From NCBI GenBank assembly GCA_001775475.1, contig MEWW01000017.1, positions 1-43,214 on the forward strand: a stretch of DNA of 43,214 nucleotides, read 5' to 3'. Position numbers and translations under genes: made by a program. Source of the stretch: Candidatus Adlerbacteria bacterium RIFCSPHIGHO2_12_FULL_53_18. GTDB taxonomy: Bacteria; Patescibacteriota; Minisyncoccia; Phycocordibacterales; SBAW01. Below, piece after piece: positions 14,058 to 40,766 of the stretch. The notes beneath the pieces were generated by a model that saw nothing but the letters and a program-made list of their open reading frames with translations, did not search any database and was not told the DNA's origin. Numbering within the stretch: the first letter of the stretch is position 1; each line of letters opens with the position of its first letter.

Positions 14058-14867
14058 GTGTCAGACATCCTAAGCGCTTTTGCCGTGCTTGACCCAAAGG
14101 GTGCCATTGGGGCCGCCGAGTTGCAGCTCATGGTGCAGGCGATGCTTTTTATGCTCATCGTCGCGGTGCCGGTGTTTGTCCTGCTGTTTTTCTTTGCCTG
14201 GCATTACCGAGCGGGCAACAAAAAAGCCAAGTACCTGCCGGAGTGGGAGCATGCAAAAATTGACGAGCTTATCTGGTGGGCGATACCGTTTGAAATTGTG
14301 TTGATATTAGGCGCCTTAACCTGGACAAGCACCCACGAGCTCGACCCGCCGAAACCCTTAGAAGGCGAGCCCGCACTCGTAGTGCAGGTTGTTGCACTCG
14401 ACTGGAAGTGGCTTTTTATCTACCCCGAAGAGGGGGTAGCCACAGTTAACTACCTTGCAATACCGGTTGGCCGGCCAGTGCAATTTAACATCACTTCCGA
14501 CGCGCCGATGAACGCATTTTGGATACCGCAGCTCGGCGGAATGCTCTACGCCATGACCGGTATGACCAACACGCTCCACTTAGTAGCCGACGAAGCGGGG
14601 GAGTATAAGGGCCTTTCCGCCAACTACAGCGGCGAGGGCTTCGCTCAGATGAAATTCGTCGCCGAAGCAATGCCGGCTGAGGAGTTTGAGACATGGACGA
14701 TAGTGACAAGATCCTCTTCGCGGTACTTGTCGTGGCAGGAGTACGAACACCTTGCGGAGCCGAGTGTCGAGGAAAGACCTACGTACTACGCGGGCGTTGA
14801 GAATAACCTTTACAATACAATCGTGATGCAGTTTATGGAAAGCGGCACGCACGCCGAGGCGCATTAA
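14058..14867 (+). CDS. cyoA: Cytochrome bo3 quinol oxidase subunit II
   Basis: LDPKG, IWWAIP, DWKWLFIYP, MNAFWIPQLGG and SANYSGEGF motifs; no CuA cysteines. Confidence 0.93.
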   Translation: MSDILSAFAVLDPKGAIGAAELQLMVQAMLFMLIVAVPVFVLLFFFAWHYRAGNKKAKYLPEWEHAKIDELIWWAIPFEIVLILGALTWTSTHELDPPKPLEGEPALVVQVVALDWKWLFIYPEEGVATVNYLAIPVGRPVQFNITSDAPMNAFWIPQLGGMLYAMTGMTNTLHLVADEAGEYKGLSANYSGEGFAQMKFVAEAMPAEEFETWTIVTRSSSRYLSWQEYEHLAEPSVEERPTYYAGVENNLYNTIVMQFMESGTHAEAH

Positions 14868-14889
14868 TTATTTGTGGTATAGTGCTTAT

Positions 14890-15072
14890 ATGGCTGTTAT
14901 CACTATTCCAAAAAAGCTGGCAAACAAGGGCGATTTGGTGGTAATCCCTAAAAAGGAACTAGAAGCCCTTATTGAACGCGCTGGAGAAGAAGTAACCGAA
15001 CGGGATATCCTACGTTGGTCAAAAGAAGCAAAACGTCTTCGTCGCGCCGGTAAACTTCGAAAACTCTCTTAG
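14890..15072 (+). CDS. Putative antitoxin
   Basis: 60-aa MAVITIPKK...DLVVIPKKE protein just upstream of a RelE-like gene, with its own TGGTATAGT -10. Confidence 0.65.
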   Translation: MAVITIPKKLANKGDLVVIPKKELEALIERAGEEVTERDILRWSKEAKRLRRAGKLRKLS

Positions 15073-15091
15073 TCGCCCACTCCAGTTGGCT

Positions 15092-15355
15092 ATGACGATT
15101 TATCTTTTTGGCCGCTATCGTCGTAGCTATAAACGCCTTGATCCGCAGTTACAACGTCTAGCAACGGAGCGAATAGTTCTCTTTGAGCGCAACCCGTTTG
15201 ATCCACGTCTCGACACGCACAGCCTCCACGGTAAACTTAAGAAGCAGTGGAGCTTTTCCGTAGACAAACGATACCGGATACTCTTTGAGTTTCTCGACAA
15301 GAACAAAGAGGAGGTCATCTTTTTAGATGTAGGTTCTCACTCGATATACCGATAA
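15092..15355 (+). CDS. RelE/YafQ-family mRNA interferase toxin
   Basis: Basic 87-aa protein: NPFDPRLDTHSLHGKL..WSFSV..YRILF...VGSHSIY. Confidence 0.85.
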   Translation: MTIYLFGRYRRSYKRLDPQLQRLATERIVLFERNPFDPRLDTHSLHGKLKKQWSFSVDKRYRILFEFLDKNKEEVIFLDVGSHSIYR

Positions 15356-15358
15356 CCT

Positions 15359-17254
15359 ATGTTTGGCAGACTTACACTAGACGCATTCGTGCATGCACCG
15401 GTTGAGACCGGCGCTCAGCTTATGGTGGTGGGCGGTGCTGTGGCCGTGGTGCTCTTGCTGACCTACTTTAAAAAGTGGGGATGGCTCTACCACGAGTGGT
15501 TGACCTCCCTCGATGCCAAAAAAATCGGCATCATGTACCTCGTCTTAACTGCTGTGATGTTGGCGCGCGGCGCCGCAGACGCCTTTATGATGCGCGCCCA
15601 GCAGGTAGTGGCGGTGGGGGAAGGGGTAGGATATCTACCGCCGGATCACTACGCACAAATTTTCAGCGCGCACGGCGTCATTATGATTTTCTTCGTCGCG
15701 ATGCCGTTTATGTTCGCGCTCCTCAACCTCATCGTACCCTTGCAAATCGGCGCCAGAGACGTTGCCTATCCTTTTTTAAACTCCGTTTCGTTCTGGCTCA
15801 CGGCCGTGGGTGCCATACTCATCAACCTCTCGCTCGTGGCGGGGGAGTTTGCTGCAACCGGCTGGCTGGCTTACCCGCCCTTGTCAGGCTTAGAGTACAG
15901 CCCGGGGGTTGGGGTCGACTACTGGATATGGGCCCTGCAGATTTCAGGCATAGGTACGCTTATCTCCGGCATCAACTTCTTTGTCACCATACTTAAAATG
16001 CGCGCGCCGGGGATGACTCTGATGCGCATGCCAATCTTCTGCTGGACGGCTCTCGGCTCGATGTCGCTCGTCATCTTTGCCTTCCCGATTTTGACGGTGA
16101 CCTTGAGTCTTCTCGCTCTCGACCGGATATTTGGCATGCACTTTTTCACCACCGACATGGGCGGCAACGCCATGCTCTACGTCAACTTAATCTGGGCCTG
16201 GGGACACCCCGAGGTTTACATTCTTATACTGCCCGCGTTCGGGATTTTCTCGGAAGTGGTGGCCACTTTTTCACAGAAAAGATTGTTCGGCTACACCTCA
16301 ATGGTCGTGGCGACCATGGCAATCGTCGTGTTGTCGTTTATCGTCTGGGTACACCACTTTTTTACCATGGGTGCGGGTTCAGACGTCAACGCATTTTTCG
16401 GCATTATGACGATGACAATAGCCATTCCGACCGGCGTCAAAGTGTTTAACTGGCTCTTTACCATGTTCCGCGGCCGGATTATCTTTGCGACGCCCATGCT
16501 GTGGTTTATGGGCTTCTTAACCACGTTTACCTTGGGCGGGATGACAGGGGTCTTAATGGCCATACCGGGCGCCGACTTCCAGCTCCACAATTCGCTGTTT
16601 TTGGTCGCACACTTCCACAACATGATTATAGGCGGCGTACTCTTCGGCTTTTTTGCGGGGCTGACCTACTGGTGGCCAAAAATATTCGGCTTCACATTAA
16701 GCGAGCGGCTCGGCCGGTACGCCTTTTGGAGCTGGATTATCGGATTTCTCCTTGCGTTTATCCCGCTCTACTTACTCGGTCTGATGGGCATGACCCGGCG
16801 GCTCAACCAGGTAGACGAGATATTCCAGCCGCTCCTTATAGTCGCGGCAGTGGGGGCGTGTGTTATTGCGCTCGGGATTTTCTTTCAAGTTCTGCAAATT
16901 GTTCACGGCATATGGAACCGGAAGAAAAACATCGCGGGCAGTGACCCGTGGAACGGGCGCACGCTCGAGTGGGCCACTTCCTCGCCGCCGCCAGAGTATA
17001 ACTTTGCAACAATCCCGGCTGTCGAAGGCCGTGATGCGTGGTGGCTTATGAAGCGGCAAGGTAAAAAATTAGAGGGGCGCGAGGAAAAGATTCATATACC
17101 GGCAAATACCCCGTTTGGACTTTTTATTGCGGGATGCACTTTGTTGCTAGGGTTCGGGATCATCTGGCACATGTGGTGGCTGGCCGTCCTTGGTGTTGTG
17201 GGGTGTATTGTTTTGCTTATGGTTCGATCTTTTATGTATGAAGGAGAACACTAG
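15359..17254 (+). CDS. cyoB: Cytochrome bo3 quinol oxidase subunit I
   Basis: RG.ADA.MMR and HY.QIF.AHG quinol-site residues; WGHPEVY, VWVHH, AHFH, MTRR. Confidence 0.97.
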
Positions 17255-17255
17255 C

Positions 17256-17828
17256 ATGCCTGCGCATGCAGGCGACAAAGTACTATTCGGCTTTTGGGTC
17301 TACCTCATGAGCGACGTGGTCTTGTTTGCGTCGCTTTTTGCGACCCACGCAGTCTTGCAAGGCCAGACTTTCGGAGCCCCAAGCATCGCCGAGCTCGCGA
17401 ACCTGCCCTTTGTGTTGTGGGAGACTCTTATCCTTCTCACATCAAGCTTTACCGTGGGTTTGACAGTGTATTTCGCTGCAAAAAAGAGAAAAGTGCAGAC
17501 TTTTTTGGCCTTAGCAGCTACATTAGCGCTCGGTGCCGCGTTTCTCTCGATGGAGCTGTATGAGTTTGCTCACTTAGTCAAAGAAGGCCACGGCCCGTGG
17601 GCAAACGCTTCATACTCGGCCTTCTTTACTCTTGTCGGCACGCACGGCCTGCACGTGTTTTTGGGTACGGTGTGGGGCATGTTGCTTGTGGTTCAGCTGA
17701 TGGTGTGGGAAGCACATGCAACAGTAGCGCGGCGGCTTATGTGCTTTAGCCTGTTTTGGCACTTCCTCGACGTGATTTGGATTTTTATCTTTACCTTCGT
17801 GTACCTGTTCGGCGCACTACAAGTATGA
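17256..17828 (+). CDS. cyoC: Cytochrome bo3 quinol oxidase subunit III
   Basis: FGFWVYLMSD, ETLILLTSS, FFTLVGTHGLHV and FWHFLDVIW motifs; AAGGAG before ATG 17256. Confidence 0.95.
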   Translation: MPAHAGDKVLFGFWVYLMSDVVLFASLFATHAVLQGQTFGAPSIAELANLPFVLWETLILLTSSFTVGLTVYFAAKKRKVQTFLALAATLALGAAFLSMELYEFAHLVKEGHGPWANASYSAFFTLVGTHGLHVFLGTVWGMLLVVQLMVWEAHATVARRLMCFSLFWHFLDVIWIFIFTFVYLFGALQV

Positions 17829-17830
17829 GT

Positions 17831-17906
17831 CCCGTTAGAGACCCGCATATACACTATGTCTGATAAAATTTCACCACAAAGAAAAAGTTCCTTAGTCTCT
17901 AACGGG
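17831..17906. mobile_element. 76-bp MITE-like element with 12-bp terminal inverted repeats and 6-bp target duplication
   Basis: CCCGTTAGAGAC (17831-17842) / GTCTCTAACGGG (17895-17906), flanked by ATGAGT at 17825-17830 and 17907-17912. Confidence 0.85.
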
Positions 17907-18269
17907 ATGAGTACGTTACAGAACTATAGTATCGGCTTCCTGCTCTCAATCGCGTTTACGCTCGCGGCTTTTTGGCTCGTGTGGCAGCACGTACAGGGCG
18001 CGGCGCTGTTCTCTGCAGAAAAGCTTGTCGTGCTGTTGGTGGGGCTCGCCGTAGCTCAGCTCTACGTCCAGCTTATCTGCTTTTTGCATCTGGGGGCCGA
18101 GAAGCAGAGGCCGCGATGGAGCCTCATCATTTTTGCCTTTGCCGCGGTTGTCGTTGTGGTGCTCGTGGGCGGCACTATCTGGATTATGTACCACCTAGAC
18201 CGGGGTCATACTGATCTTTCGGAAATTTATCCAAGCGGCACGGTTTCGCCCCAAACCCAGGATGATTAG
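17907..18269 (+). CDS. cyoD: Cytochrome bo3 quinol oxidase subunit IV
   Basis: Y.IGF.LS..FT..AF, AVAQL.VQL.CFLH and GTIWIM motifs. Original start is ATG 17907; in-frame ATG 17856 lies within the MITE. Confidence 0.9.
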   Translation: MSTLQNYSIGFLLSIAFTLAAFWLVWQHVQGAALFSAEKLVVLLVGLAVAQLYVQLICFLHLGAEKQRPRWSLIIFAFAAVVVVVLVGGTIWIMYHLDRGHTDLSEIYPSGTVSPQTQDD

Positions 18270-18957
18270 TTCCTACTACGAGCTGGTGAAGCCGCGCATG
18301 GTGCTGATGAATGTCTTGGTAGCTGTGGCGGTGTTTATCTTTGCCTCACCCGAGGTTATTAGCTGGGAGGCACTGAGCGTTATGGCTTCCGGCCTTGCTT
18401 TTGTGGTGGCGAGCGCATGCGTCTTCAACAACTACGCGGACCGGCACCTCGACGCCAAGATGGAGCGCACCAAGAACCGCGGCCTGGTGACCGGCGCAGT
18501 GACGCCCGCGCATGCGCTTGTCTTTGGCGGAGCGCTGCTGGTGTGCGGCGTCTTGCTACTGTATACGGTGCACCCCTTGGCTCTTGGGGTGGCACTCTTC
18601 GGGTTTGCGGTCTATGTGTTTGTCTACACGCCGCTTAAACCAAAAACCGGCTACGCGCTCTATGTGGGTGCTGTCGCGGGCGCCGCACCGCCCCTGGTAG
18701 GCTACGCGGCCGCGGCGCACACACTAGACTATATGGCACTGGCGCTCTTTGCTCTTTTGTTTTTGTGGCAGGTGCCGCACTTTTTGGCCATAGCACGTTA
18801 CCGCTATGATGAGTACTCTGCGGGCGGCGTACCGCTCTTGGTAGAGCGGCCAAAAAGCGCAGAGGAGCGCCAGCGTGCGCGAACAATCTTTTACCTGTCG
18901 CTCCTCGTGCTGCTTTTGTTCTGCCTTATCCTGATAGTCCAGAGGTGGATCAAGTAG
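18262..18957 (+). CDS. cyoE: Heme O synthase (protoheme IX farnesyltransferase), short form
   Basis: LVKPR, NNYADRHLDAKMERTKNR, YTPLK, GAAPPLVG and WQVPHF motifs. Confidence 0.9.
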   Translation: MISSYYELVKPRMVLMNVLVAVAVFIFASPEVISWEALSVMASGLAFVVASACVFNNYADRHLDAKMERTKNRGLVTGAVTPAHALVFGGALLVCGVLLLYTVHPLALGVALFGFAVYVFVYTPLKPKTGYALYVGAVAGAAPPLVGYAAAAHTLDYMALALFALLFLWQVPHFLAIARYRYDEYSAGGVPLLVERPKSAEERQRARTIFYLSLLVLLLFCLILIVQRWIK

Positions 18958-24599: not shown

Positions 24600-25253
24600 T
24601 CAAGTCGGGCTTCTGGTTCGGTGGTAGTGGGTGACGCTCCCTGGCGGGAAGAGATCTTCCGGCGGATACAATATGTTCTGCAACTTCTTCTTATTCTTTT
24701 GGATTGAGAAGGGATAGTAGAAGAAAGCGCCGGCCAGACCGAGCATAAACATAAGGAAGCCGGTGAAGTAGGTGGCCACCAAGCCATCGAGCGGGGTGTA
24801 GAAGTGTTGCCAGCCGCCCGCCCACATGAGTATCGCCAACGCCACCATGAGAAACAGCAGCCCAAAAATGACCGAGATATGGTTCTTCTCCTCGGAGATC
24901 TCCAAGTAGCTCATGTTTTCGAGCTGCTTTTCGGCCAGCTTACGGAGCTCCTCGTCGCCGACAATGTCGTGGCCGGCGGGGTAGGCAAGCCACCGCGCTT
25001 TCGATTCTTTGTGTTTGACGACTACAAGATGGCGCATGCCGAACATGAACGGATAGACACGAGCAGTGGTACCGCCCTTGTGCATGATTTCCATTTCGAC
25101 GACGTTCTGCACTACTTTGGGCAGGCGCAGCAGGTCGGTTGCAAAGCCGATCGGTTTTGGCTCGCGTTGAAAGATGATAGGCGTGAGGTCGGCAACTGCC
25201 GCATTGAGAACACGCGTTCTCGAATATCCGGTTAACAGATGGTCTTCCGACAT
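24600..25253 (-). CDS. Hypothetical protein with two C-terminal TM helices
   Basis: 217-aa ORF, GGGAG upstream, terminator-like hairpin near 24539-24572. Confidence 0.7.
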   Translation of the reverse strand: MSEDHLLTGYSRTRVLNAAVADLTPIIFQREPKPIGFATDLLRLPKVVQNVVEMEIMHKGGTTARVYPFMFGMRHLVVVKHKESKARWLAYPAGHDIVGDEELRKLAEKQLENMSYLEISEEKNHISVIFGLLFLMVALAILMWAGGWQHFYTPLDGLVATYFTGFLMFMLGLAGAFFYYPFSIQKNKKKLQNILYPPEDLFPPGSVTHYHRTRSPT

Positions 25254-25326
25254 CGAACACTCCCGTGGTTGTGTTGAAGATCGTTCATGTTTACATAGCT
25301 AAAATTCCGGCACAAAGTCAAATTTG

Positions 25327-25362
25327 ATATTGACGCTCTTCATGAAGAAATCTCGAATATTT
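25327..25362. repeat. 36-bp direct repeat, left copy
   Basis: ATATTGACGCTCTTCATGAAGAAATCTCGAATATTT; 35/36 identical to 27846-27881. Confidence 0.9.
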
Positions 25363-25374
25363 GTAGAAAAATAA

Positions 25375-25401
25375 AAGGGCGGGGTCGAAGACCCCGCCCT
25401 T
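25375..25401 (-). terminator. Terminator of the GT2/deacetylase unit
   Basis: AAGGGCGGGGTC-GAA-GACCCCGCCCTT with an upstream A-run (T-run on the minus strand). Confidence 0.75.
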
Positions 25402-25425
25402 GACACCTAGTCGGTGCCGCCTTCT

Positions 25426-25689
25426 TCAGCCGCAGCTTGCAGCCGGCTGGCCGCTCGCGTCGACGCGCTTCTCGCACTCCTTCTTGGTGATGCAGATTTC
25501 CTGCACTACGCCGCCGATCTCGGCCTGCACGACATTGCCGTCGCATGGACTGCTGTTCGTCGCGTAGCTCCAGAGGCATCCGCACCCAATGATTGCTGCC
25601 GCAATGGGCAGCCGCAGCGCTCCGTGGGCCAAAGCACCCACGGGGTCGCAGACAAGTCCCGCGTTAAATGACAATGTACTTCTCCTCAT
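25426..25689 (-). CDS. Small Cys-rich exported hypothetical protein
   Basis: Hydrophobic segment followed by several Cys; lies between the deacetylase and the terminator. An alternative TTG start at 25674 follows GAGGAG. Confidence 0.5.
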   Translation of the reverse strand: MRRSTLSFNAGLVCDPVGALAHGALRLPIAAAIIGCGCLWSYATNSSPCDGNVVQAEIGGVVQEICITKKECEKRVDASGQPAASCG

Positions 25690-25723
25690 GTTGTGCGCTT
25701 ATGCGCAGGTGGAAGTTCAGGCG

Positions 25724-26575
25724 TCAGTTCTGTGCCGACAGGCTCGGGATCGCCCGCAGGGCGTCCTTCACCGTTACGGCTTCGACTGCTCCCTCGAGGA
25801 CCTTGCCCAACGTACAGCGGGCAATTTGCTCGAAGTTGTCGGTCGACACTTCATACTTGTTTTCGTCGCTCTGGCCCGGTTCCGGCACGATATCGTGGAA
25901 GCCGAGCACGAGCCAAGAGCGCTCTTTTGCTGCACGGCCGACGGCCGCACAGACGTCTTTGACCGCCGTGTCGCGGGTGACGATGAGGCGGTTCACCTGA
26001 TAGTGGTCGATGCCGGTAAGTGGGTTTTGCCCCTCGCCGGCGTCGCTTTCTCCCCAGGCGCCGACCTGATTGTCGTAGAGATTTTTCACCGTCTCGAGCA
26101 CCGCGTCGTTGTAGTCGCCGGACGGCGAAGCAAACGACGTGGGATAGAAGCCGAGGTTGCGATACATCACCGCCGCCGGATAGCCCAGCTCTTCACGCAG
26201 CTGATGCTCGTCGACAGACGTCAGCATCGGGTGCGAGTGAGAATGAGAGCCCACCTCCCAGTGCATGTCGGTCCAACTCCGAACCTGCTCCCAACTCATC
26301 GTCGCCCCTCTCTCGCCGACTCCGGTTGGGGTGTCGGCAATCCCATCGGTGTTGATGAAGAGCGTACCCGGCAGTCCGTACTTCCGCACGATAGCGCGGC
26401 CGTACTCGTACTGGCTGAGAAGCCCGTCGTCAAACGTGATCGAGACCTTGCCCGTGGGGGTTGGCCGAGGCGCCGGTGTAGGCACCTGCGGTTGTGCCGC
26501 GAGTGCAACGGTAGCAAACACCGCTGCGAAGCACGTATGTGCAAAGCAAGCGGTAATGAGGCGTAGAATCCGCAT
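25724..26575 (-). CDS. Secreted polysaccharide deacetylase (CE4/NodB)
   Basis: TFDDG, HSHSHP, FASPSG and LGFH motifs; signal peptide; GAGGAG upstream. Confidence 0.92.
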   Translation of the reverse strand: MRILRLITACFAHTCFAAVFATVALAAQPQVPTPAPRPTPTGKVSITFDDGLLSQYEYGRAIVRKYGLPGTLFINTDGIADTPTGVGERGATMSWEQVRSWTDMHWEVGSHSHSHPMLTSVDEHQLREELGYPAAVMYRNLGFYPTSFASPSGDYNDAVLETVKNLYDNQVGAWGESDAGEGQNPLTGIDHYQVNRLIVTRDTAVKDVCAAVGRAAKERSWLVLGFHDIVPEPGQSDENKYEVSTDNFEQIARCTLGKVLEGAVEAVTVKDALRAIPSLSAQN

Positions 26576-26613
26576 GAGTAAGTTCTCCTCTCTTGTGCGG
26601 GTTGGTAGGGAAG

Positions 26614-27726
26614 TCAGTGACCTTTATCCCACGAGTGGAGCTTGTCCCGAAGGATCCACTCCTTCCAGATGGAATACAGGTATACGCCGAAGCTTACATA
26701 CTGCGTCACTAGAGTGGCGGGCAAGCTTGCCAGGGCCGTCGAGAACATGCCAAGCCGATATGCCCGCCACAGCGCCGGCACTCCCATGGTGATCATCTGG
26801 AGTGCCATCATCCATCCAATCGCCGAGACAACCCCGTAGCCTGCCCACAAGAGCATCACAGGCAGCATCATGGGGCCGATCAGAAACCACACGACATACA
26901 CGTAGATGAGCAGCTGGAGACGCCAGCTGCCGAACTTGTAGAACTTACGCACGGCGATGTTCTGCAGGAATCCGCGATACCACCGCGAAAGCTGCTTCAC
27001 ATAGATGCCGAAGGTCGGTGGGTCTACCGGGTAGCACTTGGCTTCAGGGGCAAAATACACGTGATACCCCTTGCCGGTTGCTTCCCAGGTTAAGTCCAGG
27101 TCCTCCGCCATTGTCCGTTCGTTGAAGTGGCCGAACTCCTCGAGCGTTTCCTTGGTACGGAAAACGCTGAAGCAGCCGGAGGCGACAAGCACCATCCGGT
27201 TGTGGTTCTGCGCCGGCTTGATAATCGTGAGGCCGTAGAGATATTCGATAAACCGGCCGCGTTCCCACAGTGTTTGTATCTTCTGCGGGACAACAAAGCC
27301 CGAGACAATGAGCGTTTTCGGATCGTTGAAGTAGCGGATGGTCTTCTCGACTGCATCGGGCGCCACAATCGTGTCTGCATCCACCGTGACGAACAAGTCC
27401 GTCTTGACGAATGCTAGAGCAAGATTTTGCGCCTGCGCCTTGGTGCCGCGGTTCTTCGGCGTGCGATACACCGCGGCGCCGAGCGACCGGGCGATGTCGC
27501 CCGTGCGGTCGGTAGAGCAGTCGTCGACGACGATGATTTCGTCGAGACGGTAGGTCTGCGCCTGGAGGCTTCTGATCGTTGAAGCGATCGAAACTTCTTC
27601 GTTGTAGGCCGGGATTATTGCTGTAATAGACAATCGCCCGCTACTCGGGCGATTGAAGGCCACTTCTTTCGGTGATAGCCCGAGGAACCAGCGCCCCCCG
27701 TCTATCAGGTGTTCTCTCAGCGCCAT
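26614..27726 (-). CDS. Processive GT2 glycosyltransferase (PgaC/IcaA-like)
   Basis: IPAYNEE, VDDCSTD, DADT, AEDLDL and QLSRW (QxxRW) motifs; C-terminal TM helices. Confidence 0.9.
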   Translation of the reverse strand: MALREHLIDGGRWFLGLSPKEVAFNRPSSGRLSITAIIPAYNEEVSIASTIRSLQAQTYRLDEIIVVDDCSTDRTGDIARSLGAAVYRTPKNRGTKAQAQNLALAFVKTDLFVTVDADTIVAPDAVEKTIRYFNDPKTLIVSGFVVPQKIQTLWERGRFIEYLYGLTIIKPAQNHNRMVLVASGCFSVFRTKETLEEFGHFNERTMAEDLDLTWEATGKGYHVYFAPEAKCYPVDPPTFGIYVKQLSRWYRGFLQNIAVRKFYKFGSWRLQLLIYVYVVWFLIGPMMLPVMLLWAGYGVVSAIGWMMALQMITMGVPALWRAYRLGMFSTALASLPATLVTQYVSFGVYLYSIWKEWILRDKLHSWDKGH

Positions 27727-27845
27727 CTCTTTGGCCTTTCTTGCGGTTGGATTGACAAAAAGGAGAATAATTACAATGTCCAAGTCTCTCGCAATTTTAA
27801 CCTATAAAACATGTTTTGTAAATGAAGCTGATTTTGCCTATTTTA

Positions 27846-27881
27846 ATATTGACGCTCTTCATGAAGAAATCCCGAATATTT
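27846..27881. repeat. 36-bp direct repeat, right copy
   Basis: ATATTGACGCTCTTCATGAAGAAATCCCGAATATTT. Confidence 0.9.
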
Positions 27882-27945
27882 TGTGCACATTTTGTCCACG
27901 CGTTACCCACGGGTTGTACACAGCTTACCAACAGGTTTACCCACA
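27881..27945 (+). promoter_or_regulatory. Array of six DnaA-box-like 9-mers at 11-bp spacing
   Basis: TTGTGCACA, TTGTCCACG, TTACCCACG, TTGTACACA, TTACCAACA, TTACCCACA starting at 27881, 27892, 27903, 27914, 27925 and 27937. Confidence 0.6.
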
Positions 27946-27964
27946 AAAGGTGCTAAAGTGGAAA

Positions 27965-28240
27965 TAAGGAAACCAGCGCGTGTGCTAGCGTTCACAGACG
28001 TGTTTTGTATTTCGAACGAAATATAAGGCGCGGGTTCTGCTCGTTCGTACATATTACTCATGGTGCAACCGAGACTCTTTAATGCATCGCGCGCGGGACT
28101 CTCAACGAGAGCTGCTTTTGCTTCTTGCCTAAAAAGCGAGTAACAAGAGCAGCTCTTTTTGTTTGAGATCTGCGAGGTTGGTCGGTCAGCGACACTAAAG
28201 AGCAGGGCTTCACTGAAAACACCTTCAGGTAAATTTCAGG
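27965..28240 (+). ncRNA. Candidate structured 5' leader / cis-regulatory RNA of the sipW operon
   Basis: Extended -10 TGCTAAAGT (27951), several G-U-containing stems, embedded terminator-like hairpin 28108-28164. Confidence 0.55.
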
Positions 28241-28309
28241 GGGCTTAACGGCACAATGATAGAGGTTTATCCATTAGTAGCTTATTAACTAGCAAATTAT
28301 TAAAAAAAT

Positions 28310-30016
28310 ATGAAACGACTTTTAGTTAGCGCAGGTACGCTGATCTTCATCGGCGCAGTTGCAATCAGCGCAACAGGCGCATTCTTTAGCGACACTGAAA
28401 CGTCGACAGGGAACACGTTTGCAGCAGGAGAGCTCGATCTCACGATTGACAACACCAGCTACGGGTTTGATTGGAACGATCCGTTAGCTACAAACCCGAC
28501 AGGTGTATGGGGACTTAACGCAGCCAACTCATGGCAACTCGCAGACCTCACGAACCAGCTATTCTTTAGCTTCGATGACCTTAAACCGGGAGATTACGGT
28601 GAGGACACCATCTCGCTCCATGTGCAAAACAACGCATGGGCATGTATGGCTCTTGATCTCACTGGAACACCAGAAAATGGTGTCAACGAGCCGGAAGCCG
28701 ACTTCCCAGACCTTACTGTCGGTGCTGACGAGGGTGAGCTCCAGAATTACCTCTCGTTCCTCTTCTGGAACGACGACGGCGACAATGTTCTTGAGACTGG
28801 AGAGACGGTAATTCCGGAATTAAGTGGCCTTCCGGGCTCTGCCTTTACTGGCAACTGGCTCGCGATTGCAGACCAAGGCGACACGCCACTTCAAGCTGGC
28901 ACGACGACGTGGATTGGCAAGGGTTGGTGCTTTGGCACGATGACCCCAAATCCAGTTGTGCAAGACAATGCATCCTCAAGTCCTCCTGTGGCGCCGGATC
29001 GCATCGGCTTTACCTGCAACGGTGCAGGCGACCACAACATCGCACAGACCGACGGTATCGTTGTAGACGTCCACTTCTACGCAGAGCAGTCAAGAAATAA
29101 TCCAAACTTCTTGTGCTCACAACTCCCTCCGCCTGATGGTCGCCAAGTCGTTGGTGCAGCAGCTGCAACATATGACGATCCTGCAATCTGTAATGTAACA
29201 GTTGACCTCGGCGAATCGCTCCAAGCTGCTATTGATGTGGCTGCTCCGGGAGACACAATTTGTGTTGATCCGACATATACAGGTGTGGGTGACGTTGCAA
29301 GTGTGATTGAAGTTAATGAACTTAATCTAACCATTGCAGGTCTTGGCGCAGCGGGCGCCGCAACGGTCAGCAAGGGTCTTCACATTGACGCAAATGGTGT
29401 AACGATCAAAGGCTTGACACTCAACGCGCACCCTCTCATCGAGGCTAGCGAACAAGCGGCGATCTACATTAATTCTGCGATCACAGGTACTACTATCACT
29501 CATAACCTGATTGATGGTCCTCCAGGCGCTATCGCGGCCAATGCTAAGGGCATCATCACGGAGATCGGGAACGATGGAACAGCAGGTGCTTCTGGCATCC
29601 TGGTTGCCCACAACCTGATTCGTGGCTGGAATCAGGGCATCTTCTTCAACACAGCAAACGCTGAAGTTAGATTCAACGACATCTATGCAAACACAGTGGG
29701 TGTTGCAAATGATGGCCCGCACAACACAACAATTCACCACAACGACTTCGACGGTAACACTGCCGAGGCCGTTGGTGTAGCTCCTTCCGCCAATAACGGA
29801 ACAGCTAACAATGGTGACTTGGATGTAAATACAAACAACTTCACTCCGGCGGGAGCAGGGAATAATGTAAATCATTATCTTGCTTCAGTTGTAGGAGGTG
29901 CAGATGTAAATGCTACGAATAACTTCTGGGATAGTGAAGTCGAAGCAGATAGGACAAATGTTCCTGCTGAGGTAGATACTTCATCTCCTGCAGCAGTAGC
30001 GTTCCCTGAAAACTAG
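28310..30016 (+). CDS. TasA/CalY-like SipW-processed protein with C-terminal parallel beta-helix
   Basis: TGAFFSDTETSTGNTFAAG SipW-class N-terminus, LKPGD core motif, then SLQAAIDVAAPGDTI and Asn-ladder beta-helix repeats. Confidence 0.85.
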   Translation: MKRLLVSAGTLIFIGAVAISATGAFFSDTETSTGNTFAAGELDLTIDNTSYGFDWNDPLATNPTGVWGLNAANSWQLADLTNQLFFSFDDLKPGDYGEDTISLHVQNNAWACMALDLTGTPENGVNEPEADFPDLTVGADEGELQNYLSFLFWNDDGDNVLETGETVIPELSGLPGSAFTGNWLAIADQGDTPLQAGTTTWIGKGWCFGTMTPNPVVQDNASSSPPVAPDRIGFTCNGAGDHNIAQTDGIVVDVHFYAEQSRNNPNFLCSQLPPPDGRQVVGAAAATYDDPAICNVTVDLGESLQAAIDVAAPGDTICVDPTYTGVGDVASVIEVNELNLTIAGLGAAGAATVSKGLHIDANGVTIKGLTLNAHPLIEASEQAAIYINSAITGTTITHNLIDGPPGAIAANAKGIITEIGNDGTAGASGILVAHNLIRGWNQGIFFNTANAEVRFNDIYANTVGVANDGPHNTTIHHNDFDGNTAEAVGVAPSANNGTANNGDLDVNTNNFTPAGAGNNVNHYLASVVGGADVNATNNFWDSEVEADRTNVPAEVDTSSPAAVAFPEN

Positions 30017-30022
30017 TCCTCT

Positions 30023-30064
30023 CTAGCCGAATCCAGCACTAACACTTAGTGCTGGGCGGGCTAG
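30023..30064 (+). other. Intercistronic stem-loop after the first TasA-like gene
   Basis: CTAGCC..CCAGCACTAA-CAC-TTAGTGCTGG..GGCTAG with no U-tract. Confidence 0.55.
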
Positions 30065-30118
30065 GTGGGATTTATTCCTAGCGTCGTTGGATTAATTAAT
30101 AGTTTTTACTAACTCAGT

Positions 30119-31618
30119 ATGAAAAGGATACTCTTGGGCACAGTTACGATAGTAGGGGCACTTGCAGCAATGTATATCGGGGTGACGGGCGCGTTTTTTA
30201 GCGACACAGAGACAAGTACCGGCAACACCTTTGCCGCCGGCGCGATTGACCTCTTGGTTGATAACGAGTCGTACTACAACGGCAATGTATGCGCCGAGAC
30301 GGCTCCTGACAGCGGCATTTGGCAATGGCAAGGCAATGCATTGTTTCCTGTCCCCGGCACCGAGTGCGACACGAGCTGGGAACTCGACAACTTAACCGGA
30401 CACCTCTTCTTTAACTTTACCGACATCAAGCCTGATGATGAAGGCGAAGACACTATCTCCCTGCACGTAAACACCAACGACGCTTATATGTGTATGAACA
30501 TTGCTCTCACAGAGAATGATGACAATAACACAACCGAGCCCGAGGGCTTGGTAGACCCAACCGCCAACCCCGACACCGAATGGGATGGCGAGCTCGCGCA
30601 GACTCTACAAATGGTCTGGTGGGCTGACGACAGCGACAATGTGCTGGAGCACGGCGAGACAATACTTACGGGCGACGGAACCGTTGTCGGCGGTGTTGAA
30701 ACCTTGTTTAACCTCGCCTCAACCAGCGGGCCGTTTGTGGTGGCGCTGGCAGACTCTGAAAACAATGTATGGGACCCACAGAATCCGGGTCCAGTACCGG
30801 GTGAAGAAACTCGCTACATCGGCAAGGCATGGTGCTTTGGCACACTGACTATCAGCCCTGTTCCATTTGACACTGGAGTGAGTCCTGCAGTTGACCCAGG
30901 GGTGTTATGCGACGGAACATTGCTTGGCAACGAAACCCAGACCGACAGCGCTCTGCTCGACGTGACGTTTGACGCAGTGCAGGCGCGCAACAATCCGGAT
31001 TTTGTGTGTCTCGAAGATGAGTGCACCTTCAACGAGCAGGTAGACCTGCTTGTTGCAACCGCTAAGTTTGAGAATCCGGAGGTAACTACCGCTCAAAACT
31101 GGGACGTCTTCGGCTCGCCGGTAGACGGCTGGAACGTTGATTGGCGCGGCGATATACCAGCAACCTTTGGCCCGCAAAATCGTCCGGCAGTCGCCAACCT
31201 TGAGTACCACGAAGGTGTCCTTGGTGCGGCGTTTGAGGGCGACCAGTATGCTGAGCTCGACTCCGACTGGGGAGGCCCTTCAGACGCGGGCACTGGTGAA
31301 CCGGCTTCTGTAAGTATCTATCGCAACTTTGTAACGGTGCCGGGTGCGCAGTACTTGCTCAAGTATCACTTCTCGCCACGTCCTAACACTCCAGCAGCAG
31401 ATAACAATCTTGAAGCAAAAGTAGAAGGTGTTGCACTTAACACCACGGGCCCAACTGCGGGCGGTGGAGCAATTGCATGGAGTGAAATTGTGGTCCCATT
31501 TATCGCTGGTGATGCAAGCACTGAAATCCGCTTTACCGACCTTGGTACCGCAAACTCGCTCGGTACATTCCTCGACAATGTTCGCTTGTACCAGATCAGC
31601 TGTCCGGTGGTGCAATAG
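30119..31618 (+). CDS. TasA/CalY-like SipW-processed protein with C-terminal DUF642/galactose-binding-like domain
   Basis: Same TGAFFSDTETSTGNTFAAG N-terminus, IKPDD core, C-terminal FE.P...EGDQYAELD...GTFLDNV jelly-roll pattern. Confidence 0.83.
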   Translation: MKRILLGTVTIVGALAAMYIGVTGAFFSDTETSTGNTFAAGAIDLLVDNESYYNGNVCAETAPDSGIWQWQGNALFPVPGTECDTSWELDNLTGHLFFNFTDIKPDDEGEDTISLHVNTNDAYMCMNIALTENDDNNTTEPEGLVDPTANPDTEWDGELAQTLQMVWWADDSDNVLEHGETILTGDGTVVGGVETLFNLASTSGPFVVALADSENNVWDPQNPGPVPGEETRYIGKAWCFGTLTISPVPFDTGVSPAVDPGVLCDGTLLGNETQTDSALLDVTFDAVQARNNPDFVCLEDECTFNEQVDLLVATAKFENPEVTTAQNWDVFGSPVDGWNVDWRGDIPATFGPQNRPAVANLEYHEGVLGAAFEGDQYAELDSDWGGPSDAGTGEPASVSIYRNFVTVPGAQYLLKYHFSPRPNTPAADNNLEAKVEGVALNTTGPTAGGGAIAWSEIVVPFIAGDASTEIRFTDLGTANSLGTFLDNVRLYQISCPVVQ

Positions 31619-35042: not shown

Positions 35043-35822
35043 ATGGAGGAAGGTATTCATATTTCGCTCGCAGCAGAGCGCTTATTTTCACTGTGGGGGA
35101 TACCCATAACCAACACAGTTGTGACCGCGGTGGGGATTGCAGTACTCCTTATTATAGCGGGGTTTGTCTTTGGTAGACGGTTGAAACTCGTCCCCGGGCG
35201 CTTCCAGACCGCTGTCGAAGCGGGGTTTGAGTATGTTTTCGGCTACGTAGAGCAGACACTTGGGAGCCGGGCTTTGGCACAGCGTTACTTTCCTTTAATA
35301 GCAACCATCTTCCTTTTTATATTGGTGGCGAACACGCTCCACTTTTTTCCGTTCGTCGGACACGCTATCGGGCTGGAAGATCCAAGCACCAACGGCCTCG
35401 CTCCCTTGCTGCGCGCGCCTAACACCGACCTCAATACTCCGCTGGCGCTTGCTATCATCACGTTCTTGGTTGTTGAGATTTCAGGCATCCTCGCCCTGGG
35501 GCTGTTGAAATACGGCTCAAAATTTGTTAATTTCAAGGCAGGCGCGATAGGGTTCGTTGTTGGACTCCTCGAGATTATCGGCAACCTCGCGCGTCTTGTC
35601 TCGCTGTCGTTCCGGCTCTTTGGAGCGATATTCGCAGGCGAGGTACTGCTCCTAGTCATGGGCGTATTCGTGCCATACTTTCTGCCGGTGCCGCTCATGG
35701 CGTTCGAGCTTTTTATCGGATTCCTGCAGGCGGCTATTTTTGCGATTCTGACACTCGCATACATCAAGCTGGCGTTGGAAGAGCCGCACGGCAGCGAGCA
35801 CGCGCACGCAGGCGCACATTAA
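35043..35822 (+). CDS. atpB: ATP synthase Fo subunit a
   Basis: P..FQ...E, SLSFRLFG (essential Arg) and LQAAIF motifs. Confidence 0.95.
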   Translation: MEEGIHISLAAERLFSLWGIPITNTVVTAVGIAVLLIIAGFVFGRRLKLVPGRFQTAVEAGFEYVFGYVEQTLGSRALAQRYFPLIATIFLFILVANTLHFFPFVGHAIGLEDPSTNGLAPLLRAPNTDLNTPLALAIITFLVVEISGILALGLLKYGSKFVNFKAGAIGFVVGLLEIIGNLARLVSLSFRLFGAIFAGEVLLLVMGVFVPYFLPVPLMAFELFIGFLQAAIFAILTLAYIKLALEEPHGSEHAHAGAH

Positions 35823-35843
35823 TTAAGCTTCAATTATTAGTAG

Positions 35844-36083
<240 letters not shown>

Positions 36084-36095
36084 CTACGCGAACGG

Positions 36096-36200
36096 TTTCG
36101 CTGAATTGGTCTTCGAAAAGTCCTCGGTTCTCCCGTCTCGCGCCGCTCTCTGCGGAGCGTCCTCGCGGGCCAGACTTTTCTCACACCAATTCCAGCTCCA
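36096..36200. repeat. 105-bp structured intercistronic repeat, copy 1 (atpE-atpF)
   Basis: Core GAAAAGTCCTCGG.TCTCCCGTCTCGCGCCGC...CCTCGCGGGCCAGACTTTT shared with 40769-40873. Confidence 0.9.
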
Positions 36201-36212
36201 CGTATAGATAGT

Positions 36213-36653
36213 ATGGAACAGGTTCTGCACGTATTCGGCATAGACTGGAAGCTGCTTTTAATCAACGCGGCGAACTTCGGCCTGCTTTTGGCGGCGTTGA
36301 CCTACTTCTTCTATAAGCCGATGATGCGGATGCTCGACCTGCGCCGCGACAAAATCGCGCACGGCGTTGAGGCCGCGCAGAAAGCCGAGGCGGAACTTAA
36401 GGAAATCGAGGCCTCGCGCGCCGCCAAGCTGGCCAAAGCAGGGAAGGAGGCCGACCAGGTGGTTTCCGAAGCGCGCAGTGCAGGCGCCGAAAAGCAGAAA
36501 GAAATCGTTTCTCTTGCCGAAGCCGCTGCCGCACGCACGCTTGTCGAGGCCGAGGCACAGGCGGAGGATATGAAGCAAAAGGCCGTGCAGGAGAGCAAGC
36601 AGGAGGTCGCAAAGCTCGTCGTGCTTGGGATGGAGAGGGCGCTCAAAAAATAA
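36213..36653 (+). CDS. atpF: ATP synthase Fo subunit b
   Basis: N-terminal TM, YKP....D.RR, Ala/Glu-rich coiled coil; operon position. Confidence 0.92.
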   Translation: MEQVLHVFGIDWKLLLINAANFGLLLAALTYFFYKPMMRMLDLRRDKIAHGVEAAQKAEAELKEIEASRAAKLAKAGKEADQVVSEARSAGAEKQKEIVSLAEAAAARTLVEAEAQAEDMKQKAVQESKQEVAKLVVLGMERALKK

Positions 36654-36654
36654 T

Positions 36655-36909
36655 ATGACCCTAGCTGCTCAATATGCCAAAGCGCTCTACGAGAGCAACG
36701 CGCCGGAAGGGGCGCGGTTAAAAAATCTGCGCGAGACCTTGAGACGCCGCGGACATGAAAAGCTTTTGCAGCAAATTTATACGGAGTACAAACGGCTGGT
36801 CGAGGAAGAAAAAAGACTGCAGGAATATAAAAAGATAACGCCGGAGAAAGAACAAACCCGCATACTGCTCGAGCTCTACCAAAAACTAGTACACACACCC
36901 TCGCTGTAA
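36655..36909 (+). CDS. atpH: Short ATP synthase delta-like subunit
   Basis: AAQYAKALYE N-terminal delta motif; between atpF and atpA; only 84 aa. Confidence 0.7.
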   Translation: MTLAAQYAKALYESNAPEGARLKNLRETLRRRGHEKLLQQIYTEYKRLVEEEKRLQEYKKITPEKEQTRILLELYQKLVHTPSL

Positions 36910-36912
36910 ACT

Positions 36913-38469
36913 ATGGCTAACTTTATAGAACAATTTAAAAAAGAGATCGAAGGCTTTGTCCCGAGCGAGCGAGCGCAAGGAGGTATCGTGACGCGCGTGC
37001 AAGACGGCGTTGCGGAGATTGAGGGCCTGGAGCGCGCGGGCATGTCGGAGATGGTGCGTTTTAATATTGCAGAGGGCAAGCCGCTTCAAAAAGCAGTTGA
37101 GGGCCAAAGTCACGTGTACGGCGTCATTTTGAACCTGGAAGAGGAGTCAGTGCGCGCGATTATTTTAGGCGACCAGGCTTCCGTTGCCGAGGGCATGCCG
37201 GTTGAGGCAACAGGAACGACGCTTTCTATCCCTGTGGGGGAGGCACTGCTTGGCCGCGTGGTCTCGGCCTTAGGCGAGCCTTTGGACGGCCTCGGGGCAA
37301 TCAAGGCGGAGAAACACAACCCTATTGAGCGCGAGGCGTACGGCGTGATGGACCGACAGAGTGTTAACCAGCCCTTGCACACCGGCATCAAAGCCATCGA
37401 CTCGATGATCCCGATTGGCCGCGGCCAGCGCGAGCTTATCATCGGTGACAGAGGCACCGGCAAAACGACGGTTGCAATAGACACGATTTTAAACCAGCTT
37501 GCAGAACCGGAAGAGAGCCGCCCTGTGTGCATCTACGTAGCGGTCGGCCAAAAAGAAAGCAAGACGGCAAGACTCAGCGGCCTGCTTAAAGAGCGTGGAG
37601 CGATGGACTACACGATTATCGTTGACGCCGGCGCCTCCGCACCCGCAGCACTGCAATACTTGGCGCCCTTTGCAGGTGCGGCGATAGGCGAGTACTTCAT
37701 GGATAAGGGCCGCGACGCCTTGATTATCTATGACGACCTCTCCAAGCACGCGGTGGCCTACCGTGCACTTTCACTCCTGTTGCGCCGCCCGCCGGGCCGC
37801 GAGGCGTACCCGGGCGACGTGTTTTATCTCCACTCGCGCCTCTTGGAGCGCGCGGCAAAGCTCAACGCAGAAAAAGGCGGGGGTTCCTTAACCGCGCTCC
37901 CCATCATCGAGACGCAGGAGAACGACATCTCCGGCTACATCCCAACCAACGTGATTTCTATCACCGACGGGCAGATATTTTTGGAGACCGACCTCTTTAA
38001 CAAAGGTACGCGGCCTGCCATCAACGCCGGCAACTCGGTGTCACGCGTAGGCTCCGCCGCGCAAACCAAGGCGATGAAAAAAGTCTCCGGCAAGATCAAG
38101 CTCGAGCTGGCGCAGTTTCGCGAGCTGGAGGCCTTTATGCAGTTTGCACAGGACCTCGACCCCGACACCAAAAAGCGCATCGACCGGGGAGCGCGCATGA
38201 TGGCGATTTTGAAGCAAAAGAACGGTGCTCCAATGGCGTTCGAGCGGCAGGCGGTGGTGATTTATGCCGCGGTGAACGGTTATCTTGAAAGAGTTGCGGT
38301 AGGCCGCGTCGGCGAGTTTGAAGAAAAATTCCTGAACTTCCTCGACTCAAGTGCCAACCATGTGCTTGAGTCTATAGCCAAAGCAAAGGATATCGTTTTG
38401 CAGACCGAAGAGGAGTTAAAGACGCAGCTCAAAAAGTTCGAAGAGACACATCCGGACCTCTTTAAGTAG
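36913..38469 (+). CDS. atpA: ATP synthase F1 alpha
   Basis: [40 protein letters not shown]. Confidence 0.98.
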
Positions 38470-38470
38470 T

Positions 38471-40766
<2,296 letters not shown>

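Follow-up and report, generated by a model that had tools for sequence, protein, structure and literature searches.

The question raised by this locus is what decides whether transcription continues from a structured leader of some 345 nt into the operon behind it. The window (the whole 43,214-nt stretch of DNA analyzed here, contig C17) belongs to a 540-kb genome that is 89% complete. By its first downstream protein, its nearest named relatives are Patescibacteria carrying Kaiserbacteria, Zambryskibacteria, and other Paceibacteria labels. The leader region is flanked by a divergent glycosyltransferase gene and by five co-oriented genes, for three paralogous TasA-like proteins, a SipW-like peptidase, and a lamin-tail protein:

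28310..30016, plus strand: first TasA-like gene of the operon; the others begin at 30119, 31651, 32670 (SipW-like), and 33260 (lamin-tail protein)

A SipW-type signal peptide (TIGR04088, cut-off 19 bits) is recognized in the products of 28310 (22.0 bits) and 30119 (19.4 bits), both of which match PF12389 below cut-off only, and 32670 encodes an archaeal/SipW-type signal peptidase (TIGR02228, above cut-off). A sequence search of the N-terminal 277 amino acids of the first protein against the PDB returned nothing significant, so the designation “TasA-like” rests on the signal-peptide and SipW evidence and on the literature; Patescibacteria are already known to have TasA homologues (PMC9245690, available text).

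The original prediction proposed an undescribed attenuator, riboswitch, or antitermination RNA controlling matrix genes. Of these, the attenuator is the reading that held: the hairpin and U-run are conserved, covary, and are tied to the TasA-like operon. With a probability of roughly 0.6, judged from sequence comparison, the leader is a ribosome-dependent transcription attenuator of this operon.

Folding of the Leader

The features discussed below are:

27999..28032, plus strand: 5′ hairpin P1, 15 bp, z = -6.0
28060..28143, plus strand: leader ORF of 27 codons, with its stop codon within the terminator hairpin
28099..28111, plus strand: small hairpin overlapping the 5′ arm of the terminator, a possible RNA-polymerase pause hairpin
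28109..28155 and 28156..28164, plus strand: intrinsic-terminator-like hairpin and U-run, paired and covarying in homologues
28180..28185, plus strand: GGUCGR motif, in homologues mostly the loop of a hairpin, with a weak stem in the window
28205..28257, plus strand: downstream hairpin, z = -4.3, overlapping a block of ~35 nt common to the three closest leaders

The whole 345-nt leader folds at z = -4.77, with none of 100 shuffles equally stable. The 15-bp stem predicted at 27999-28013/28018-28032 is in place, with its four G-U pairs. This hairpin, P1, is likely a protective 5′ stem-loop and not an aptamer; hairpins of unlike sequence occupy its position in G033, G035, and L130 (alignment read by eye). 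The predicted terminator-like stem is likewise present, followed by a tail of five U, one G, and three U, and has a pair probability of 1.0 at every transcript length folded; the longer rod into which it was thought to extend was recovered at 28096-28170 (z = -4.95).

The long-range and competing pairings of the original prediction do occur, but are partial in the full leader (probabilities 0.53-0.54 and 0.30-0.39). As a switch they fail. Their 3′ partners (28193-28210) are transcribed later than the U-run; the pairings can therefore arise only on read-through, too late for the termination decision, and they are not conserved: pairing between upstream and downstream segments was better than in shuffles in 0 of 22 homologous modules. 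What orthologous leaders keep is the hairpin and U-run, with covariation, and not the long-range pairings. An antitermination RNA is also disfavored, the best non-terminator fold being 14-28 kcal/mol worse than the terminator in all 24 modules (20 in the window) by equilibrium folding only.

The Rfam check that had been suggested found no family at cut-off and no known aptamer. Locally in the window there was no credible match to E = 10, nor any in 20 homologous loci; six loci gave sub-threshold matches only, mostly to generic miRNA hairpins. Neither tmRNA nor any other known RNA matched as an identity for the leader. The riboswitch reading fares poorly as well: the homologues share no aptamer and have no competitive RNA antiterminator.

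Within the downstream hairpin region, the block at 28224-28257, which contains a TTCAG direct repeat, is largely invariant in four of four leaders (the window, G033, G035, and L130); the latter three have this block and lack a GGUCGA hairpin.

Homologous Leaders and Their Distribution

A DNA similarity search with the leader found no matches in 100 relatives, and homologues were therefore collected via the downstream protein. From 105 loci, 4 without a detected start, 26 that were operon-internal or redundant (by hand), and 9 duplicates were removed, leaving 66 leaders. A rule-based scan yielded 19 distinct hairpin-plus-U-run modules and a relaxed scan five more, after one non-homologous candidate (L091) was dropped. 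These 24, among loci numbered L001-L186, are a minority: most TasA-like operons have no such module.

In the terminator stem 96.5% of cells are paired, a score inflated by the choice of modules for having a hairpin, and 9 of 12 pairs show two-sided changes; covariation is 0.648, against 0.317 for shuffled and at most 0.204 for slid alignments. Invariant alignment columns are restricted to the terminator base, the U-run, and GGUCG. Every module has a U-rich tail straight after the G-C stem base (partly by selection), with just three U before a G in one subgroup. The idea that the hairpin serves as terminator of an upstream gene was rejected, the neighbor being divergent.

A covariance model finds a single copy in each of 8 genomes out of the 88 of the family, seven of these being in the training set. 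All eight are among the 12 genomes with a TasA-like operon, and the other 76 have no match. The four operon-bearing genomes that the model missed have either a diverged module (G013, G030) or a shorter hairpin with a U-rich tail (G033, G035), and in the latter pair the leader ORFs likewise enter the shorter hairpins. Run against 150 genomes of the order, the same model recovered the window and a copy from the training set and added a single new true one, which also precedes a TasA-like gene; two further matches were weak and false, one lying within a coding gene and the other being a plain terminator. A strict pattern for one subgroup had no matches in 401 genomes of the order. By these scans, the ORF-hairpin unit is found solely before TasA-like operons of Paceibacteria.

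The small hairpin at 28099..28111 is paired in 83% of cells across the 24 modules, with some covariation; it beats shuffles (p ≤ 0.1) in eight of the 24, the window copy (0.88) not being one of them, which makes it a weak candidate for a pause hairpin.

An ORF Overlapping the Terminator-Like Hairpin

The leader ORF, which was absent from the original prediction's list of features, begins 49 nt before the terminator-like hairpin and extends into it. The context of its AUG scores at the 76th percentile among the starts of genes in this genome and at the 97th when all ATGs are taken; Shine-Dalgarno sequences are rare at gene starts in this genome (13%). In 17 of 18 strict modules (2.35 expected from shuffles), an AUG lies 38-60 nt before the hairpin and opens a frame that runs into it; 21 of the 23 modules in the relaxed set have one, against a background of 12.7% over 22,113 intergenic positions of the window's genome; the modules are kin, forming seven clusters at 70% identity and one at 62%, so that these statistics overstate the case. 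One module truncated by a contig end (L134) was excluded from both tests.

One reading frame is depleted in stop codons (21, 19, and 3 per frame over 19 modules). In 11 of the 19 modules the ORF stops at a UGA that follows the stem by 7 nt; these 11 ORFs range from 25 to 70 codons, and their hairpins vary from 42 to 59 nt. The symmetry of the hairpin does not by itself require indels to come in threes. There are two exceptions to the spacing: L113 has an insertion of ~100 nt, with its AUG 152 nt upstream and the frame still open to the usual UGA, and in L173 a stop comes early and another AUG is present 24 nt upstream. The ORF overlap is also seen in copies that had no part in building the model (L006, L139, L014, G030, and, from another family, L203), the L014 ORF ending at the usual place with UAA. 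The stop lies inside the hairpin in the window, L024, and L112, and other frames are used in L022, L143, and L004.

The 21 pre-hairpin peptides share no conserved residues or codon run. The window and L021 peptides are similar, with synonymous changes (by eye). A conserved peptide function was considered and ruled out; L112, G033, G035, and L130 shift frame. On comparison of these sequences, the retained feature is the overlap of ORF and hairpin, not the peptide.

The GGUCGR Motif and a Subgroup Pseudoknot

The GGUCGR hairpin of the window is not itself stable (z = +0.85). As DNA, GGTCGA is found in sense orientation in 34 of the 66 TasA-operon leaders, and in antisense in three (3.1 expected). 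GGTCGR lies within 260 nt of the start in 43 of 66 and is thus commoner than the attenuator; in 38 of these 43 it is enclosed by at least five pairs (30 expected), with variable arms. Copies before rpsA-, rplJ-, and cspA-like genes had prompted the idea of a genome-wide 5′ UTR signal, which was rejected: in 312 upstream regions there are 19 sense and 28 antisense copies, with 18.1 in shuffled sequence.

One subgroup has, in place of a hairpin like P1, a predicted H-type pseudoknot between the transcription start and the leader AUG (L113:78-107, L116:2255-2299, L167:2079-2119, L062, and L035), significant against shuffles (p ≤ 0.06) in 5 of 12. It could gate leader translation or constitute a small aptamer.

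A small ORF, presumably resembling a GIY-YIG nuclease, is found in L112 (2120-2500) and in L090, L150, L168, L176, and L177; that of L112 is inserted between the leader and the first gene, after the GGUCGA motif.

A Possible Mechanism

Sequence comparison supports ribosome-dependent attenuation on several counts: there is an ORF, it overlaps the hairpin, the stem covaries, the unit is tied to the operon, and no RNA antiterminator competes. By default, the hairpin would end transcription near 28163. A ribosome that had started at AUG 28060 and reached codon ~13-14 before the 3′ arm emerged from the polymerase would cover the 5′ arm and block the hairpin. The polymerase would then enter the operon, and the rod, the GGUCGR hairpin, and the long-range pairings would form only afterwards. 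The ribosome would be given time to load by a pause, for which the small hairpin together with the U-rich 5′ arm (a mean of 4.75 U in 10 nt) is a possible site. In constraint folding with an assumed footprint of -12/+15, the stem base is lost once the masking ribosome has reached codon 13-14.

Since the peptide lacks both conserved residues and a run of codons, the input would most likely be the pace at which the leader is translated compared with that of transcription, whether set by general translational capacity or by nucleotide-dependent pausing as in pyrBI. Costly fiber export would thereby become conditional on active growth. It is likely, then, that a translating ribosome gates transcription of the fiber genes and that a small-molecule riboswitch is not the decider.

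For E. coli, terminators less than 100 nt into an ORF are suppressed only if there is a pause (PMC4824070, available text). The design requires a ribosome able to follow the polymerase and so bears on transcription-translation coupling in Patescibacteria: in this genome 21 of the 63 terminators predicted have a stop codon within 12 nt, a share below the >70% given for uncoupled B. subtilis (PMC7819879, in the text available), though not negligible. Counting against an attenuator, termination before the leader stop would yield a non-stop RNA in many homologues. Searches for Rho, SmpB, and tmRNA found none in this genome, whose 89% completeness means that absence is not established.

Alternative Explanations

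The ORF and hairpin could instead be a small gene in its own right, encoding a small protein or an sRNA and ending in a terminator of its own, the operon being driven from an internal promoter behind it. The gene-like start context of the ORF is consistent with this, as is the conserved TTCAG block of the four closest leaders. It is nonetheless unlikely: the peptide is not conserved, and frames vary even among close leaders; in 15 of 19 modules the conserved-frame ORF stops after the stem, at or past the termination point; the gap between stem and operon start is just 61-120 nt in 15 of 19; in the one homologue scanned (L116), a sigma-70 match occurs only upstream of the ORF; and the unit was found solely before TasA-like operons. 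Post-transcriptional control, in which a ribosome on the ORF opens the rod and reshapes both the GGUCGR hairpin and the region of the start, altering translation or stability while the U-run terminates little, is likewise improbable. It would do without transcription-translation coupling, it would suit the subgroup with only three U in its tail, and the conserved UGA lies at the base of the GGUCGR hairpin, able to pair either upstream or with the hairpin in several copies (by eye); against it stand the U-rich tail that directly follows the stem in every module, selection having contributed to this, and the position of the window's own stop, inside the hairpin and 37 nt before the GGUCGR motif.

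The remaining possibilities assign the decision to a protein or a metabolite. A protein antiterminator acting on leader or polymerase, in the style of LoaP/RfaH, TRAP, or BglG and with the ORF secondary, might be suggested by the operon-specific GGUCGA loop motif, by a terminator 3′ arm resembling what we take to be the boxA consensus, and by the presence of NusB. However, GGUCGA comes after the terminator and so cannot act before the decision; the genome (89% complete) yielded a single NusG, with one PF02357 match and no paralogue found; clustering of 815 ORFs revealed no regulator family, NusG paralogues included, that recurs near the operon; and conservation of the frame would go unexplained. 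We consider such a protein very unlikely. Matrix genes are common riboswitch targets, and an aptamer in 27965-28100 could in principle govern the terminator or how accessible the leader AUG is, as the subgroup pseudoknot ending at that AUG might do for leader translation. The 5′ parts are unlike among subgroups, however, and the window has no pseudoknot; Rfam gave no match, no invariant columns lie in the would-be aptamer, and there is neither a competitive antiterminator nor a long-range pairing better than shuffles. This is the least probable of the four.

Comparison with Known Attenuators

If it is a ribosome-dependent attenuator, the leader has two close parallels. In E. coli pyrL-pyrBI, as here, an intrinsic terminator lies within a short ORF, there are U-rich stretches, and it is the ribosome, not an RNA antiterminator, that blocks the hairpin; tight coupling across pyrL prevents termination there (PMC5021804, available text). 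The present leader differs in preceding a secreted fiber operon instead of pyrimidine synthesis genes, in its long hairpin (41-59 nt), and in the GGUCGA hairpin that follows. Since the downstream genes are TasA/SipW-like, with no pyrimidine genes to control, it would work like pyrBI but is no pyrL. In B. subtilis bmrB-bmrCD a terminator also lies within the leader ORF, read-through of bmrB requires translation, and blocked translation strengthens the terminator; that system, as described in the available text of PMC4191407, relies on alternative stem-loops, and antibiotics that target the ribosome induce it, whereas the leader here has no competitive antiterminator and no resistance gene. It thus resembles the pyrBI and bmrB attenuators in how it would work, but belongs to neither.

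Amino-acid attenuators such as those of trp, his, and ilv combine a leader peptide with a terminator and possibly a pause hairpin. Unlike the present leader, those of the trp/his type have a run of control codons, none being common to the 21 pre-hairpin peptides. Their terminator also lies >20 nt after the ORF (PMC4824070, available text), whereas here the two overlap.

The Bacillus tapA-sipW-tasA operon is under the repressors SinR and AbrB. Like the operon here, that of B. subtilis encodes a SipW-type peptidase and several proteins with SipW signals (PMC9245690, available text). In the literature searched, no report was found of a leader-ORF attenuator for Bacillus tapA-sipW-tasA or for Patescibacteria, nor, among work on Patescibacteria riboswitches, attenuators, structured RNAs, uORFs, and GGUCGA, any that concerned this leader; subscription journals and supplements of RNA screens were outside the scope of the search. 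Patescibacteria have tiny genomes and few regulators, and a conserved attenuator of the leader-ORF type, controlling what is likely an attachment or biofilm fiber, would show how the timing of a surface structure can be set without transcription factors. At ~150 nt, the element is portable to standard reporters.

Promoter Region and DnaA-Box-Like Array

Upstream of the leader are three further features:

27881..27945, plus strand: six DnaA-box-like 9-mers with a period of 11-12 nt, a DNA element just upstream of the promoter
27954..27959, plus strand: candidate extended -10 element 1, start near 27966; partly invariant in four of four close leaders, without a good -35
27986..27991, plus strand: candidate extended -10 element 2, implying a start near 27997, where the base of P1 lies; hexamer invariant in four of four

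Both -10 candidates are conserved, which would place the transcription start near 27966 or 27997. The array was defined with what we take to be the DnaA-box consensus; a consensus derived from counts agrees with it, but those counts were seeded with it. It is the only array in the genome with at least four boxes, and under a three-box rule, 161 genes with a long upstream gap yield just two arrays, those of dnaA and of the TasA-like operon. A similar array is present in 22 of 66 homologous leaders (antisense 3). The commonest spacing, 9 + 2 nt, equals that of the low-affinity arrays of E. coli oriC (PMC6727663, available text). This distribution suggests DnaA control of the fiber operon promoter.

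Taken together with the leader, the array could conceivably be part of a three-tier growth checkpoint on the TasA-type attachment fiber of Paceibacteria, the DnaA array reporting replication, the leader ORF reporting ribosome activity, and the GGUCGA motif recruiting a factor. This is a speculative and rather doubtful scheme; if true, fibers would be built only when the cell both replicates and translates, for example on a host.

Other Features of the Window

A hairpin similar to that of the leader, but without a U-run, lies between the first and second TasA-like genes of the window (30017-30118), and also in L016, L017, L005, and L084 (by eye); it is possibly an mRNA stabilizer or processing site. 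The divergent minus-strand genes at 24600-27726 encode a glycosyltransferase (PgaC/IcaA-like, below cut-off) and a polysaccharide deacetylase, a possible matrix-polysaccharide partner of the fiber operon. A 40-nt repeat, 95% identical at 25323-25362 and 27842-27881 and containing a 12-nt perfect palindrome, stands upstream of two minus-strand genes and is likely an operator common to both. The window further carries, within this 540-kb genome, heme-copper (cytochrome bo-type) oxidase subunits and an F-type ATP synthase cluster, at 14058-18957 and 35043-40766.
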